64,000 nucleotides of DNA from Escherichia coli (GCF_045037415.1 NZ_CP173438.1); one strand, 5' to 3'; positions 17,142 to 64,000 are shown, numbered from the stretch's first letter. Notes: generated by a model not told the origin, from the sequence alone. Numbers and translations are program-made.

Positions 17142-17318
17142 TTTTCCCTCTGCATACTGTTTTGTCTTTTCATCAATATACGTTAAGGATACCACTACCG
17201 ATGACGGTGAGGGAGTAGAGTAATCAATCAGTTTTAGTGAATGGAGGAAATAATGACATATAACAATTATTCATATGGTGTTTAAAAAACCTCACTAAAA
17301 ACTCAATATGAAATTTAA

Positions 17319-17816
17319 TTATTTAATGTTCAATAACTCTATGGCTTTAGTATATTCATCAGGAATACCAATTATAAAACAAGGTGCGGTATCGGTAGGT
17401 AGATTTTCTTTGTTATCATCATCCAGAACAGAAATAGAAAACTGTCGTTCAGGTGTTGATGTTGTGGTTATTAAAATGGTTGGATTAGGAAGAGAAACAT
17501 ATGTTGTCTCATTTTTTAGTTTTATTCCTTTGATGTTTTCTTTGTTAATTTTATCAATCGTTTCAATAGAGAAAAAAGAATCATGCCCCATTCGCAGTTC
17601 AATTTTATTATCGTTTTCGAATAAATAAAGGGCATTATTGTTTTGAAACAGATTGAATATATTGTTAGCGCAAGTTTGAGTTGCTAGCCAGGATGCCGCT
17701 GGATGACTCAAATTAATATGTGTGCTAAAGACTTTGACGCGACTACTTCTGTTTTTCTCTTTACTTTCAATTAAATGCCTAGCGCTGTTGGCTGCTTTAC
17801 AAGTTCCATGCCCCAC
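17319..17816 (-). CDS. hypothetical protein (GTG start), possible pseudogene
   Basis: 165-aa ORF in AT-rich DNA; the same frame stays open upstream through a hydrophobic segment with no canonical start before a stop at 17922. Confidence 0.25.
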   Translation of the reverse strand: MGHGTCKAANSARHLIESKEKNRSSRVKVFSTHINLSHPAASWLATQTCANNIFNLFQNNNALYLFENDNKIELRMGHDSFFSIETIDKINKENIKGIKLKNETTYVSLPNPTILITTTSTPERQFSISVLDDDNKENLPTDTAPCFIIGIPDEYTKAIELLNIK

Positions 17817-18411
17817 ACGGCAAAAATAATCTCCTGAAAGGATACTTACAATCAGTATTACACCAATGACGACAGAAAAAATAGTTCCGATGAGTTTGAT
17901 GATGACAATCCTTGTGCAGTGTTATTTTCACCATGGATTATAATGTTATAGTGAAATTATTGCACCTGTAATTTTTCTTTGATTGTTTTAATCATCACAT
18001 TTACGCACTTCTTCATCTTTGTAGCAGGTAAAAGCCATATATGGATGGCTGGTGTCCGGTGCAGATAAAATGCAACTTATTCTTGATAGCTTGAAAAAAG
18101 AGAGGTTTTTTTGAGTGACGGTTGATGGTCGGTGGCAAGGAAGACGTTTTCGTACACTCGGCAAGAAAAATGAATCACTCTGTCATACTACCAGATACAT
18201 CAGCAGGGTCAGGTTGCTCAGAAATAAGCAGGATGGGGATCACTGAAGAGGCATTTTGGCGATCACAGGAGTCGAATATGAGTGTTAATGTTTTGATTTT
18301 AAATGATTAACCCGTGTTGGATAAATGAGTAACCCCCATAAGAACCCCCAAATGACTTTGCGTAAGGGAATGAGGCTAAAATACACAATCGAATCAATTA
18401 TTAGAGCTTTC

Positions 18412-19254
18412 TTATGAAGGTAACACTCCCGGATAGTGTTTCGCAATAATCTCATTCAGCCTGTCAACCAGTTCTGGTTTCCTGAACGTGATGTGTGCGG
18501 AGCCCTTCTTAAAGTATCTGATGCTGAACATCTCATCTTCGTAGTCCTCTTTACCTTGAACAGACTGGGTGTGGTCATCCAGATGAATGGTGATGTTTTC
18601 CCGGTTGTCGGGGATCGGTTTGCCGCTGAACAGGTGCAGCATTCTTTCCAGATCGGCAAGTCGATCGGCCTGTTGCCCGGTGATAAGATGAAACCCCCAT
18701 CTGTCCCACCTTACCAGGTTGTTGACGATAATTTTACTGCCAAACTTGCAGGGGCAATTGGTTTTGTAATTCCAGCTCAGTCCCCTGAAGACGTTGATCA
18801 CCCCCCGCTCAAACACTTCATCTTTGTTCTGGTGCAGTTGTTCAAATGTGCTCAGAATGTTCGCTTCACTGATTTCCGGAAAATTATCGTATTCCAGTGA
18901 TCGGTACCATGTATCACGGGCCTGTGCATCCATTAAGGAAAGCATCCCTGAACGTTGCATCAGGTCACGCCAGATTTCGCGGTCAAGATTCCGGGTAATG
19001 GCTTTCATTGCCGTTTCAGGTTTCTCCATGAGCCAGCATCCGCAGCGAAAATCCTGTTTCATGGCCCAGTCCGGGGCAGTTTTACCTCCGATGCTTTCCG
19101 TCAGCACCGAGATTTCAGCCAGTTGCCGGATAAGTGTGTCGATTTGCAGCAGTGTATTCTTTCGTACAGCCAGAATGTGGCAGATTGAGGTGGAACAGAT
19201 AACGTCCGTATGCCCGTTGACCACTTCCGGACGGGAGACTGTGATTTTAGACAT
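18412..19254 (-). CDS. conserved hypothetical protein at distal end of CP4-like cassette (280 aa)
   Basis: Long ORF co-oriented with the cbtA/cbeA cassette; no family recognised by eye. Confidence 0.5.
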   Translation of the reverse strand: MSKITVSRPEVVNGHTDVICSTSICHILAVRKNTLLQIDTLIRQLAEISVLTESIGGKTAPDWAMKQDFRCGCWLMEKPETAMKAITRNLDREIWRDLMQRSGMLSLMDAQARDTWYRSLEYDNFPEISEANILSTFEQLHQNKDEVFERGVINVFRGLSWNYKTNCPCKFGSKIIVNNLVRWDRWGFHLITGQQADRLADLERMLHLFSGKPIPDNRENITIHLDDHTQSVQGKEDYEDEMFSIRYFKKGSAHITFRKPELVDRLNEIIAKHYPGVLPS

Positions 19255-61559: not shown

Positions 61560-62633
61560 CTACTGATACTGTATGCCAGAATGTTTCCTGCCTGCTGCTG
61601 AAAACGGCAATATCCAGGGCCAGACATATTCACCATTCATATTTCTGCATTTCTGTACAATTTTCTCAGAAAGCGTCTCATCAATTCTTTCACGCAACTT
61701 CTCCTGCTGTCTTAAAATACTTTCGCATATTTCGAAATCATCTTCCTGCATCAGCATTTCGGCGCATTTAATGATTTCTGCCCGTTCATGCAGCACAGAG
61801 GAATGGTTATAGAGCCAGTTTACAAACAGCAATGCTTCCGGATATTGTCCCCATAATGGTGAGTATGTTGCATAATAATCTTCGGCAGTATCCGGCCCGG
61901 CAGAATAGTTATGCCATACAGCAAGAGGAAATGGATGCAGATTTCCGCACAGTATTTCCGCGATGTAAGTATTTGCCGCAAATCCGCGACGAAATGCAGT
62001 TGCAGCTTTTACCTGTTCCCCATTAAGAAAATGCAGAAGACCAAGTTCATACCAGTAAGGTGAAAATTCATCAGCATGTTTTTTCAGTACACTGAAGGCT
62101 CGCTCATGATCACCTGTTCGTAACAGTTCTGAACCCAACAACCAACGGGCACCCTGATTATCTTCAGGATTGTATGCCAGTATTTTATCAGTAAGCATAA
62201 CCGCATCCTGATGACGCTGTAAGTGCACATTTGCGAGAATTGCTGCATAAAGCGCGCGCAGATAAGGCCGGTTTTCGGGATGCATCCAGATGATTTCACC
62301 ACTGAAACTTTCCGGGATGAGACGATTACCGGCCGCCAGTCCTTTAAGCGCGGCGTTCAGAGCCTTACGCGGGGCATTCTGCTCCAGAAATGCATATGCC
62401 AGATGAGCGTGTATATCAATAAAGTCAGGCTCCCGTTGAGCAAGGTGTCTGAGTTTGTTGATGTAACTCGTCTCGCTGATTTCATCAGTGTCGTATGCAT
62501 CAAGCACTTCTTCAAACTCCCCCAGTAATGGGCCAAACCAGGTATCCGGAAATACGAAACGCCCCTGGTTATCGTTCACTTCAAAGCGTAATCTGTCGTT
62601 CATTTTCTGAGCCTGTAAAACGGATGGGGACAT
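61560..62633 (-). CDS. hypothetical TPR-like repeat protein (357 aa)
   Basis: Helical-repeat-like composition (repeated L/A/Y-rich segments); no specific family recognised. Confidence 0.45.
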   Translation of the reverse strand: MSPSVLQAQKMNDRLRFEVNDNQGRFVFPDTWFGPLLGEFEEVLDAYDTDEISETSYINKLRHLAQREPDFIDIHAHLAYAFLEQNAPRKALNAALKGLAAGNRLIPESFSGEIIWMHPENRPYLRALYAAILANVHLQRHQDAVMLTDKILAYNPEDNQGARWLLGSELLRTGDHERAFSVLKKHADEFSPYWYELGLLHFLNGEQVKAATAFRRGFAANTYIAEILCGNLHPFPLAVWHNYSAGPDTAEDYYATYSPLWGQYPEALLFVNWLYNHSSVLHERAEIIKCAEMLMQEDDFEICESILRQQEKLRERIDETLSEKIVQKCRNMNGEYVWPWILPFSAAGRKHSGIQYQ

Positions 62634-63035
62634 AATCTGAAAAGCATAAAAGTCGTGATGTTGTGTATCAAGTCCTGTTTTTGTCCGGGATGAATGTTGT
62701 TTACAATATCATCGACAGTGATTTTACATGAGAATGAAAATTTATCTTTATCTGCATTCCGGTGTATTGTGAGTTGTCAGCTGAAACAGCATATTAATCG
62801 ATTTTTTTTGTGATGGCGCTGAAATAACGACAGGATGATGATTGAAACTCCAGGTATCAAAATTGTTAGCGGTCCATAACGGTGTGATGTTTTGAGATTG
62901 TTTACAGATGCAATATTAAATATTTTGTCAAAAAACAAAAAATATCTAAAAATAAAGCATAAAAACAAAATTCCTCCGGACCTGGAGGCCGGAGGAGAAT
63001 TTGTGGATTGAGAGAAAATATCAGGACAAGTGCTC

Positions 63036-64000
63036 TTAACCCTGACTCTCTTGCTTAGAAAGCGAATCAATATAATCTGCGTACCACTGCATCATTTCAC
63101 GGCGACCATCGAGATACTGGGCATGATTATAGGTACCCCTGATGGCGTTTTTATCCACATGAGCTAACTGCATTTCAATCCAGGCAGAATTAAAGCCCTG
63201 TTCGTGCAGAATGGTACTCATGGTGTGTCTGAAACCGTGCCCTGTGAGTCTTCCCTTATATCCCAGTAATTCAATGACTTGGTTAATGCTTTCCTTACTA
63301 ATTGGCTTGCGAGGATCGTTCCTACCGATAAAGACCAGAGGATGATGTTTTGTGATGGGTTCAAGTTGCTTAAATAGGGCAATGACCTGCTCAGAGAGCG
63401 GCACAATATGAGGTCGCTTCATCTTCATTACTTCTGCCGGAATCTCCCATAATTTTGTCTCAAAATCGATATCCTCCCAGCGTGCGAAACGTAATTCTTG
63501 TGTTCGTACACCAGTTAACATAATGATCTGAGTAGCTGTCTTAGTGATGATACTTCCGGTATAACCCGCCAGATCGTTGAGGAAGTGGGGAAGTTCATTA
63601 GCAGTAAGAAAGGGTAAATGTACTTTTTTCGGTGTAGCTAAAGCACAGGCAAGATCGGGAGCAGGGTTGTAGTCTGCCCGGCCAGTAACAATTGCATAGC
63701 GGAACACTTCACCACAGCGCTGGCGGACTTTGCGCATTTTCTCCAGAGCTCCACGTTTTTCCATTTTACGTAGTGCTTCCAGTAACTCCATTGGTTTGAT
63801 TTCGGCGATAGGGCGTTTGCCAATGTAGGGAAAAATGTCTTTTTCAAAGGTATCAATGATTTCATCACGATAGCGTAATGACCACCGATCGGCTTTTGAC
63901 TGATGCCATTCGCGAGCAATGGCCTCGAACGTATTTTTCAAACTCATTTGTTGCGCGATTTTTTCTTCTTTTTTTACCACCCCTGGATCGCCTCCAGCAG
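63036..64000 (-). CDS. P4-type tyrosine integrase, 5'-partial (N-terminus beyond window end)
   Basis: Catalytic-domain motifs (TGVRTQELRFARWEDID, HGFRHT, LAHVDKNAIRGTYNHAQY); ORF still open at position 64000. Confidence 0.85.
   Translation of the reverse strand, partial: AGGDPGVVKKEEKIAQQMSLKNTFEAIAREWHQSKADRWSLRYRDEIIDTFEKDIFPYIGKRPIAEIKPMELLEALRKMEKRGALEKMRKVRQRCGEVFRYAIVTGRADYNPAPDLACALATPKKVHLPFLTANELPHFLNDLAGYTGSIITKTATQIIMLTGVRTQELRFARWEDIDFETKLWEIPAEVMKMKRPHIVPLSEQVIALFKQLEPITKHHPLVFIGRNDPRKPISKESINQVIELLGYKGRLTGHGFRHTMSTILHEQGFNSAWIEMQLAHVDKNAIRGTYNHAQYLDGRREMMQWYADYIDSLSKQESQG

Follow-up and report, generated by a model that had tools for sequence, protein, structure and literature searches.

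A selC island of Escherichia coli that is very probably a variant of the H10407 PAI tia

Islands related to the locus

In E. coli K-12, the CP4-44, CP4-57 and CP4-6 elements sit at tRNA or tmRNA genes and have a P4-like integrase, and the distal module of the K-12 CP4 elements comprises a YeeP-like GTPase, DUF932, antirestriction and RadC-like proteins and the YeeU/CbeA-CbtA toxin-antitoxin. A number of pathogenicity islands use selC, the tRNA-Sec gene, as their site. PAI tia of ETEC H10407 (also ROD-20; NC_017633.1, ~4215539-4260902), of which leoABC is a named component, occupies about 46 kb at selC between the repeats of PAI I536 (PMC7545054). For two further selC islands, GIselC17584/1 of STEC and EPI-I of APEC, both a 16-bp direct repeat, TTCGACTCCTGTGATC, and a second, 21-bp repeat pair have been published (PMC6174562). 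The tia gene also occurs at tRNA-Phe loci, as in SE-PAI, which is inserted at pheV and carries an integrase, a sulfatase, tia and shiA (PMC7545054).

We analysed a 64,000-nt stretch of E. coli DNA (GCF_045037415.1, NZ_CP173438.1; hereafter the window), which an initial annotation had described as carrying a mosaic genomic island to the right of yicL. We find that 18277 to ~64532 is very probably one att-bounded island at selC with a P4-type ('CP4') integrase, and a variant of the H10407 PAI tia. The K-12 CP4 elements, which are comparable in integrase and distal module, have other attachment sites and cargo.

Boundaries and mobility of the island

The last core gene is yicL (16218-17141, minus strand). 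Its start codon is at 17141, and alignment to K-12 MG1655 stops 29 bp past it, at 17170, so that core synteny ends here, as had been proposed. Beyond this point K-12 continues with setC, yicT' and selC, whereas the window diverges and setC is indeed missing. A lineage-specific flank of 35% GC (17171-18243) replaces K-12 yicT'/setC; it contains an orphan 165-aa ORF (17319-17816, minus strand) and gave no Pfam or PADLOC match. Among 5426 complete E. coli genomes, 1102 have this flank next to yicL, whatever follows beyond, including ZH193, ATCC 25922 and 536, which carry other selC islands or almost none. The 1.1 kb from 17171 to 18260 is therefore a lineage-specific flank outside the att repeat and not part of the island, and the start originally placed at 17196 has to be moved to 18261/18277. 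Strain 536 shares both this outer flank and the DUF4942 end gene that follows, whereas H10407 has setC where the window has the orphan gene.

Genomes 100% identical to the window over 52423-64000 allowed us to read the position of selC and of the proximal att site, both of which are outside the window. The tRNA anticipated just past the right edge is present and is selC, as had been suggested: it occupies window-equivalent 64525-64619, 525 bp past the window edge, with the P4-type integrase as its immediate neighbour. At 18261-18276 the window repeats 16 bp of the selC 3' end, TTCGACTCCTGTGATC, exactly and with the orientation of selC (chance expectation 0.01). This copy falls in the interval 17196-18411 that had been proposed for such a search, and its partner is within selC at window-equivalent 64533-64548. 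This copy forms part of a distal att site (18244-18276, minus strand) that consists of the displaced selC 3' end and native flank. The flank 'AAAATGCC' is the sequence that follows selC in K-12 and ZH193, and 'GGCATTTTGGCG', adjoining the 16-bp repeat, corresponds to the native selC terminus plus flank of K-12, ZH193 and H10407. The displaced 3' end (18257-18276) has lost four nucleotides, TTCC, leaving a distal repeat of 16 nt as against 24 nt in H10407; on the island side, the sequence at the distal att is the same as in H10407. A second end repeat of 21 bp, TTTGGGGGTTCTTATGGGGGT, is found at 18332-18352 (minus strand) with a partner near selC at window-equivalent 64395-64415, and this pair matches both published variants exactly. 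Together, the 16-bp repeat and the displaced tRNA terminus with its flank delimit an island of 46.3 kb, from 18277 to ~64532, in agreement with the site and approximate size of the H10407 PAI tia.

The integrase (63036-64000, minus strand) is represented in the window by residues 77-396, and its gene extends to window-equivalent 64226, about 300 bp from selC. It has the Arm-DNA-bind_3, Phage_int_M and Phage_integrase domains and is 99% identical in amino acids to the H10407 selC integrase. These domains agree with its earlier designation as P4-type. Its supposed outward orientation is not borne out: the gene is on the minus strand, in the same orientation as selC, and is thus read from the window edge inward. 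The ancestral element would have entered when its attP recombined site-specifically with the final 16-24 nt of tRNA-Sec, with the island providing a new 3' end for selC and the original end, together with native flank, being pushed to the far side at 18244-18276. Since the integrase is intact, both 16-bp repeats are present and an AlpA-like protein (36666-36899, plus strand) is a candidate excisionase or regulator, excision is conceivable. However, with 4 nt gone from the displaced selC end, precise excision would yield a shortened and probably non-functional selC.

We also considered whether the region might be ancestral, lineage-specific chromosome that was lost from K-12 and is not mobile. 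The outer flank does behave in this way, being retained beside yicL irrespective of what lies beyond. Past 18276, however, each segment is confined to between 7 and 180 of the 5426 genomes: at least 80% of 12000-20000 is present in 180, 26081-40000 in 88, 46029-57652 in 76, 58351-64000 in 87 and 40000-64000 in 7. Moreover, tRNA-derived repeats and an integrase bound the region, and ZH193, with the same flank, has a near-empty site with just a 1-kb rhuM gene in the island's place. For 18277-64000 this explanation is refuted, and we regard it as almost certainly wrong. The DNA to the right of yicL is accessory, as had been claimed, and the description as a mosaic genomic island holds. The island is also AT-rich, but only on average (46.5% GC, compared with 50.3% in the window's core part), with individual segments ranging from 39% to 52% GC.

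Conserved ends and variable cargo

Homology to the H10407 PAI tia is found in five segments (18247-26080, 27733-29663, 36010-39737, 58383-59521 and 61230-64000), at 83-98% nucleotide identity over about 20 kb and with gene order kept. The shared parts include the order integrase, TPR protein, phosphoethanolamine (PEtN) transferase, tia and Phe-type integrase remnant at the selC side, a type I restriction-modification (R-M) system at the equivalent place, and both a ProQ/AlpA/Gp2 module and a YeeP-to-DUF4942 distal module (83-98% nucleotide identity). The distal CP4-type module (18412-26004, minus strand; 90-95% nucleotide identity) encodes DUF4942, DUF957 and DUF5983 proteins, the CbtA toxin, the YeeU/CbeA antitoxin, a DUF987 protein, a RadC/JAB protein, an antirestriction protein, DUF932 and DUF905 proteins, a hypothetical protein, an HTH regulator and a YeeP-like GTPase.

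In contrast to H10407, the window is without leoA, leoB and leoC: it has no homology to H10407 4222131-4226179, and none of the three appears in the annotation. The PEtN transferases encoded at the equivalent place in the two islands are different paralogues (only ~27% amino-acid identity), and the type I R-M system is unrelated at the nucleotide level and accompanied by a Kiwa-like pair and rhuM. EAST1/IS1414, an H-NS paralogue and an IS66/IS110 cluster are extra in the window. The CP4-type integrase at selC, the TTCGACTCCTGTGATC repeat and the 21-bp repeat pair are common to PAI I536 of UPEC 536, GIselC17584/1 and EPI-I. GIselC17584/1 further resembles the island in its YeeP-to-YeeV type IV toxin-antitoxin module, KlcA antirestriction protein, Gp2-family proteins and PEtN transferase. 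In gene content, the cargo differs both in PAI I536 (haemolysin, fimbriae) and in GIselC17584/1 (shiA, HK31-type R-M and others).

For the genes between the ends, functions beyond family assignment are based on RefSeq labels and HMM matches. Next to the distal module, in a segment of 39% GC, is an orphan 376-aa ORF (26189-27319, plus strand) with no family match. It is followed by an Inovirus-Gp2/YagK-YfjJ family protein (28818-29549, plus strand; 83% nucleotide identity to H10407) and by a 'restriction endonuclease' gene (29877-30756, plus strand) whose frame, compared with IPCEC48, is shifted by one additional A at 30081. An intact astA of 38 codons, encoding a variant of the EAST1 enterotoxin (30907-31023, plus strand), lies within an IS1414-like transposase remnant (~30770-32296). 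Then come the H-NS family paralogue (32518-32958, plus strand), IS256 and IS21 fragments (~33225-34015) and a plus-strand module (35209-39737) of Gp2-type, hypothetical, AlpA-like, hypothetical, ProQ/FinO-like (37718-38062, itself on the minus strand) and hypothetical proteins, of which 36010-39737 is 88-98% identical in nucleotides to the H10407 PAI tia.

The earlier description of the region as IS-laden is supported by these fragments, by IS1 and by an ISEc43 element (IS66 family; 40694-46116, plus strand) with ISEc45 (IS110 family) inserted in its tnpC. ISEc45 at 42935-44380, with 101 bp of ISEc43, makes up a 1547-bp unit, two copies of which follow each other head to tail (42934-44480 and 44481-46027). 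Tandem duplication of ISEc45 is recurrent.

The interval 46277-47790 contains a hypothetical and an HTH gene (both minus strand), a small ORF and a MobI-family gene (47404-47790, plus strand). The product of the latter matches Pfam MobI with E = 1e-27, yet is only ~26% identical in amino acids to IncC MobI and has no NCBIfam match; no hairpin or inverted repeat was found upstream of the gene. In an IncA/C-type mobilisable island, the MobI homologue would sit beside an oriT that a helper relaxase recognises. Beyond it is a defence cluster of six co-oriented genes (47848-56815, minus strand): hsdM (54836-56815), hsdS (53550-54836), hsdR (50314-53550), a KwaA-like gene (49760-50314), a KwaB-like gene (48918-49760) and RhuM/PDC-S05 (47848-48897), the first five of which abut with 1-nt overlaps. 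The Kiwa anti-phage system consists of neighbouring genes for KwaA, a multi-TM protein, and KwaB, a DUF4868 protein. PADLOC profiles matched both Kiwa-like proteins at near full length (KwaA, E = 9e-16; KwaB, E = 7e-14). The KwaA-like protein has at least three hydrophobic segments but scores 25 bits against the NCBIfam KwaA cut-off of 100, and Pfam DUF4868 was not recovered in the KwaB-like protein. The Kiwa-like pair is unannotated. A RelB/DinJ-family antitoxin-domain protein (56883-57389, minus strand), so named by its RefSeq label only, separates the cluster from IS1 (57598-58365, plus strand). The IS1 element marks a recombination joint, strains with the same cargo to its left having different DNA beyond it; in MSB1_8B this is daaF and afa/dra.

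In all, the cargo comprises Tia, EAST1, a yjgX-type PEtN transferase, the H-NS paralogue, the ProQ/FinO-like protein, the CbtA/CbeA toxin-antitoxin pair, an antirestriction protein and the defence cluster (type I R-M, Kiwa-like and RhuM).

The integrase remnant and the tia block

The truncated integrase reported at 58.4-58.6 kb is real. It spans 58367-58549 (minus strand) and retains the last 60-64 codons of a P4-like integrase of the tRNA-Phe type. Its match to the C-terminal end of a pheV integrase is 98% in amino acids (99.4% in nucleotides), whereas the selC integrase is only 42% identical in amino acids. Beside it are tia, encoding an invasin/adhesin outer membrane protein (OMP; 58772-59518, plus strand; 93.2% amino-acid identity to H10407 Tia), the yjgX-type PEtN transferase gene (59693-61195, plus strand) and the TPR-repeat protein gene (61560-62603, minus strand; 93.4% amino-acid identity to its H10407 counterpart). 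The PEtN transferase gene is ~92% identical in nucleotides to the K-12 yjgX remnant, which presumably adjoins intB at leuX, and 93% identical to AR_0017; its product scores far under all MCR and EptA cut-offs.

This arrangement had been taken to mean that selC had received two islands in tandem, the proximal with the integrase, TPR protein, PEtN transferase and tia, and the distal with the R-M and CP4-like cargo, whose own selC-type integrase the truncated gene would be. The order of features does fit such an array (starting from selC: intact integrase, small cargo, same-orientation remnant, large cargo, distal att), and two or three elements at one tRNA locus are known (PMC6174562). However, no further copy of the 16-bp att core occurs within the island, even with up to 2 mismatches in 16 allowed, and the 21-bp repeat is found at the two ends only. 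An integrase of Phe type would also not be expected to target selC. Finally, the joint between the remnant and the region upstream of tia (58549/58550) is identical in the H10407 selC island and in the pheU island of AR_0017; it therefore did not arise at selC in this genome, but predates the island and travels as a shuffled module. We consider successive integration at selC very unlikely. The island is composite, but not demonstrably through tandem integration at selC.

The preferred reading, a single selC island, would instead have the remnant as a relic of a tRNA-Phe-type integrase brought in with the tia block. The tRNA-Phe islands of AR_0017 (pheU) and N767 (pheV) have integrases of the same type as the remnant, and differ from the selC island in that integrase (41% amino-acid identity), in tRNA target and in distal cargo. 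In AR_0017, tRNA-Phe is followed by an integrase, the TPR gene, the PEtN transferase gene, tia and the integrase remnant, and the block is 93% identical in nucleotides over window positions 58383-62699, the homology breaking off at 62699, in the interval that separates the TPR gene from the integrase. Compatible with the single-island reading, and indeed part of it, is a history in which tandem accretion occurred at an ancestral tRNA-Phe locus. An intact Phe integrase, TPR protein, PEtN transferase and tia would there have been followed by a second Phe integrase, later truncated, and the block subsequently joined to the selC integrase/att module by recombination ~340 bp downstream of the integrase gene. 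The exact order in AR_0017 and the point at which its homology stops argue for this, as do the OMP/PEtN-transferase blocks that adjoin pheV integrases in N767 and strain 127 and the yjgX remnant of the same transferase type retained by K-12. Against it, no remnant of a tRNA-Phe 3' end was found anywhere in the island, so that a tandem step at the Phe locus cannot be demonstrated, and transfer may have run either from Phe to Sec or from Sec to Phe. We regard such accretion as a serious possibility, somewhat short of an even chance.

Comparison of a handful of genomes, rather than a phylogeny, suggests an order of events in which a block from a Phe island was acquired and cargo was turned over in situ. 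The modules at the two ends, from integrase through TPR protein and PEtN transferase to tia on the selC side and from YeeP through CbtA/CbeA to DUF4942 on the far side, are conserved, while the cargo between them may have been swapped through recombination with P4-integrase islands of other sites (pheU, pheV, leuX) and through IS activity. The island is of an ordinary, well-known kind, a mosaic of insertion sequences with virulence and anti-phage defence DNA.

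Ends of the island at selC

The window derives from an E. coli chromosome. Positions 12000-20000 are 100% identical in IPCEC48 (NZ_AP026794.1) and in four other strains, and the right half is 100% identical to strain 219 and IPCEC48, except for one repeat unit. The differences between IPCEC48 and the window are confined to one copy of this unit of 1547 bp, 69 bp in hsdR, an indel of 1 bp and three mismatches, and the RefSeq annotation of IPCEC48 could therefore be transferred; important calls were re-examined by HMM searches.

Alignment to K-12 MG1655 placed the end of core synteny (ilvBN, uhpABCT, adeD, adeQ, yicN, nepI, yicS, nlpA and yicL) at 17170, which is 29 bp past the start of yicL. 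In K-12, yicL is followed by setC, yicT (an integrase pseudogene) and selC, none of which is present in the window. Both the break after yicL and the missing setC had been noticed in the initial annotation, which began the island at 17196. Accessory DNA does follow yicL, but the left boundary needs to be shifted by 1.1 kb, because 17171-18260 lies outside the att repeat. This flank has a GC content of 35% and holds a single orphan ORF (17319-17816), which matched no Pfam or NCBIfam family; the same was true of a second orphan ORF at 26189-27319. The flank was found in 1102 of 5426 genomes and adjoined yicL in all strains inspected, irrespective of the DNA further on: in ZH193 only a 1-kb rhuM gene separates it from selC, whereas in ATCC 25922 it is followed by a retron-bearing island and in strain 536 by the DUF4942 end of its selC island. 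It takes the place of setC in a lineage-specific way and does not belong to the island. Elsewhere on the core side, an HTH/RelE-ParE toxin-antitoxin pair between yicN and nepI (12756-13416, minus strand), extra relative to K-12, is also present in ZH193 and absent from ATCC 25922. About 1.3 kb of low-GC DNA (~40%) between ilvN and uhpA (2454-3764), which contains a DUF6708 pseudogene interrupted by a stop codon, is missing in H10407.

The tRNA gene selC is a textbook integration hot spot in E. coli (LEE, PAI I536, SHI-2, PAI tia), and the initial annotation had anticipated it beyond the right edge. Since ARAGORN and Rfam detected no tRNA or other RNA gene within the window, selC was located via identical genomes. 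IPCEC48 is 100% identical over 52423-64000, and its right-end locus aligns without mismatch over 58618-64000. Read off that genome in window-equivalent positions, the integrase gene extends to 64226; tRNA-Sec, encoded like the integrase on the minus strand, occupies 64525-64619, and beyond it the core resumes with yicJ and yicI and runs on to recG and spoT. The 320 integrase residues within the window are identical to the full-length IPCEC48 protein, whose domains (Arm-DNA-bind_3, Phage_int_M and Phage_integrase) form the P4-type architecture. The assigned type therefore stands, but the gene is not oriented outward as had been proposed: it reads from the edge into the island.

When selC was slid along both strands of the window, a single match was obtained, an exact copy of its 3' sequence, TTCGACTCCTGTGATC, at 18261-18276 in selC orientation. 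It falls in the interval 17196-18411, where a search for a copy of the tRNA 3' end had been proposed, and the chance expectation for a 16-bp selC match, with two mismatches tolerated, is 0.01. The sequence around this copy, GAAGAGGCATTTTGGCG-ATCACAGGAGTCGAA, corresponds in reverse complement, bar a 4-nt deletion, to the native end of selC together with its AAAATGCCTC flank, and the same flank follows selC in K-12, ZH193 and H10407. An old terminus and flank displaced to the far end are the signature of site-specific integration into a tRNA 3' end. A second, 21-bp repeat pair (TTTGGGGGTTCTTATGGGGGT / TTTGGGGGTACTTTAGGGGGT) lies at 18332-18352 and window-equivalent 64395-64415, 55-120 bp inside each end, with no copy elsewhere in the island. 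The sequences of both pairs are exact matches to the repeats reported in GIselC17584/1 and EPI-I (PMC6174562). Between the 16-bp repeats the island spans 18277-64532 (46,256 bp); its layout is that of a P4-integrase island inserted at selC, and both att-derived repeats are present.

From the displaced 3' end of selC (18257-18276), 4 nt (TTCC) are missing. Since ZH193, which has nearly no island, carries an identical 4-nt-deleted att copy, a single old integration scar seems to have been retained while the cargo was replaced; H10407 retains the full 24 nt. The island would have entered through tyrosine recombination inside the 16-nt core; later it would have exchanged modules with Phe- and Sec-linked islands and been rearranged by IS elements. 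With an intact integrase, an AlpA-like gene and both cores, the island may have kept a residual ability to excise. Excision across the cores would leave a selC that ends ...GTGATCGCCA and whose acceptor stem lacks four nucleotides. The predicted empty site would read ...TTCGACTCCTGTGATCGCCAAAATGCC, that is, selC without TTCC, and precise excision is thus predicted to truncate or damage the gene. Blum et al. are said to have described in 1994 how loss of PAI I536 also inactivates selC.

The integrase remnant and the tandem model

The truncated integrase seen at 58.4-58.6 kb, which had suggested two islands integrated in tandem at the same site, is real (58367-58549). Three results nevertheless argue against two tandem integrations at selC. 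A search with selC 3' k-mers, allowing mismatches on both strands, found no tRNA 3' copy near 58.6 kb and no second att core within the island; the 21-bp end repeat likewise has no additional copy there, and a tblastn scan revealed no integrase remnants beyond the two known loci. The remnant itself is of the Phe type: it matches the C-terminus of the pheV (tRNA-Phe) integrase of strain 127 at 59 of 60 amino acids and that of a pheU integrase at 57 of 60. Its identity to the selC integrase is 42%, and two full integrases of the Phe and selC types share 41%. Finally, the joint between the fragment and the sequence upstream of tia is not unique to this island: H10407 has it at selC and AR_0017 at pheU.

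The AR_0017 copy of the whole block (fragment, tia, phosphoethanolamine (PEtN) transferase and TPR gene) is 93% identical and adjoins an intact Phe-type integrase. N767 and strain 127 carry related pairs of OMP and PEtN-transferase genes next to pheV integrases, and in K-12 strains a yjgX remnant of this same transferase survives. These comparisons show the tia block to be a recurrent integrase-proximal module. If the remnant did arise from a tandem event, this most likely took place at a tRNA-Phe locus; no remnant of a tRNA-Phe 3' end was found anywhere in the island. Homology to the pheU island stops at 62699, ~340 bp downstream of the selC integrase gene, and it is at this point that the selC-specific integrase/att module is attached.

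Kinship with PAI tia and other mosaic joints

The 'PAI tia' of ETEC H10407 is about 46 kb in size, lies at selC and carries the PAI I536 repeats (PMC7545054). Its order is selC, integrase, IS3, TPR, PEtN transferase, leoABC, tia, integrase remnant, type I R-M, second integrase remnant, ProQ/HTH/Gp2 module, GTPase-to-DUF4942 module, 24-nt repeat, rhuM fragment, setC and yicL. BLAST matches to H10407 cover 18247-26080 (90-95%), 27733-29663 (83%), 36010-39737 (88-98%), 58383-59521 (92%), 61230-62673 (90%) and 62669-64000 (98%). At the protein level the integrase is 99.0% identical, Tia 93.2% and the TPR protein 93.4%. In contrast, the PEtN transferase is only ~27% identical to that of H10407 and is therefore a different paralogue, and leoABC was not found in the window by annotation or BLAST. 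The island in the window thus belongs to the PAI tia family but differs from H10407 in its middle. H10407 itself has a second integrase remnant (4242491-4242683 in that genome), ~71% identical in nucleotides to the selC integrase and next to a PerC-family gene, at a position roughly corresponding to the IS66/IS110 cluster of the window (40.7-46.1 kb), which is another joint of the mosaic. The PAI tia family is therefore assembled from three or more ancestral elements.

A further mosaic joint is marked by IS1 (57598-58365). MSB1_8B is 99.8-100% identical from 31 kb to this element, past which it has daaF and an afa/dra operon in place of the tia block. Among 5426 genomes the left end was found in 180, 26-40 kb in 88, 46-57.6 kb in 76, the tia/integrase end in 87 and the whole right half in 7; such unequal frequencies would be expected of a modular island.

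The repeat unit that distinguishes the window from IPCEC48 forms a perfect head-to-tail duplication (42934-46027) of 1547 bp, comprising ISEc45 (IS110 family, 42935-44380) and the following 101 bp of the interrupted ISEc43 tnpC. It is single-copy in all near-identical reference genomes. An assembly artefact is unlikely, because the independent genome of CH4804 has a like ISEc45 duplication with a different end point (unit 1622 bp). At the joints a flank ending in CT is joined exactly to the IS left end, GCGTAT[CT]/CTTATGACC and GTAGTA[CT]/CTTATGACC, resembling a genuine left-end insertion junction and the IS right end (...CATCAT[CT]). This arrangement suggests that a recombinase-mediated exchange involved CT-core pseudo-targets, and not that the assembly is at fault. 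Smaller differences were also seen. The window hsdR gene is 69 bp (23 codons) longer than in IPCEC48 at 52362-52422 and equal in length to that of MSB1_8B, an in-frame indel between islands that are identical elsewhere. An extra A at 30081 relative to IPCEC48 shifts the frame of a 'restriction endonuclease' gene (29877-30756), reflecting either a pseudogene or a sequencing error.

Cargo and prospects for mobility

The distal module encodes DUF4942, DUF957, DUF5983, CbtA, YeeU, DUF987, RadC/JAB, an antirestriction protein, DUF932, DUF905, an HTH regulator and a YeeP-like GTPase. The middle contributes two Gp2/YagK-type proteins, a ProQ/FinO-like protein, an H-NS paralogue and an AlpA-like excisionase/regulator (phrog E = 6e-10). 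An intact astA of 38 codons (30907-31023, plus strand; EAST1 heat-stable enterotoxin variant, MPSTQYIRRPTSSYASCIWCATVCASCHGRTTKPSLAT) sits within an IS1414-like transposase remnant, and RefSeq covers only its last 21 codons. The PEtN transferase scored far under all NCBIfam cut-offs for MCR and EptA.

The defence cluster (47848-56815) consists of co-oriented hsdM, hsdS, hsdR, two genes called 'hypothetical' by RefSeq, and RhuM (PADLOC candidate family PDC-S05, E = 8e-167). The two 'hypothetical' genes (48918-50314, minus strand) gave nearly full-length PADLOC matches to KwaA (E = 9e-16) and KwaB (E = 7e-14), and the KwaA-like protein has several hydrophobic segments. Its NCBIfam KwaA score is far under the cut-off, and the KwaB-like protein gave no NCBIfam or Pfam match, DUF4868 included; the pair is on that account only a probable divergent Kiwa. 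One-nucleotide overlaps link the first five genes of the cluster, such that the end of hsdMSR is fused to the Kiwa-like pair, with rhuM next. In this cargo a type I R-M system is fused to a Kiwa-like pair that had gone unannotated. A recent plasmid origin of this segment was rejected, since only IS fragments matched plasmids.

Beside the cluster, in this chromosomal island, lies a gene for a MobI-family protein of 128 aa (47404-47790, plus strand; Pfam MobI E = 1e-27), only ~26% identical to IncC MobI and without an NCBIfam match. An inverted-repeat scan found no inverted repeat or hairpin upstream of it, its segment is absent from plasmids, and a preprint on oriT-carrying islands contains nothing particular to selC or MobI. 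We treat mobilisation by a conjugative helper as a lead and not as a finding. Its boldest form, which we consider improbable, is that the island is a 'hitcher' and not a fixed relic: the intact P4-type integrase, the AlpA-like excisionase and the distant MobI-family protein, acting with an unrecognised oriT, would make the island or its 46-57.6 kb segment mobilisable by a conjugative helper, spreading a previously undescribed fused operon (hsdMSR translationally coupled to the divergent Kiwa-like pair, then RhuM).

Beyond correct annotation the significance of the island is small: its ends and backbone are common to described islands, and near-identical copies are already among the public complete genomes. 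The exact boundaries are useful, since the 4-nt defect is common to strains with quite different selC cargo, among them 536, ST131 and ATCC 25922, and this suggests turnover of cargo within fixed ends rather than repeated fresh integrations. Likewise, the tRNA-Phe-type relic beside tia marks a module that has been exchanged between Phe and Sec islands, and bears on the question, raised in a review (PMC7545054), of how PAI tia is related to SE-PAI.
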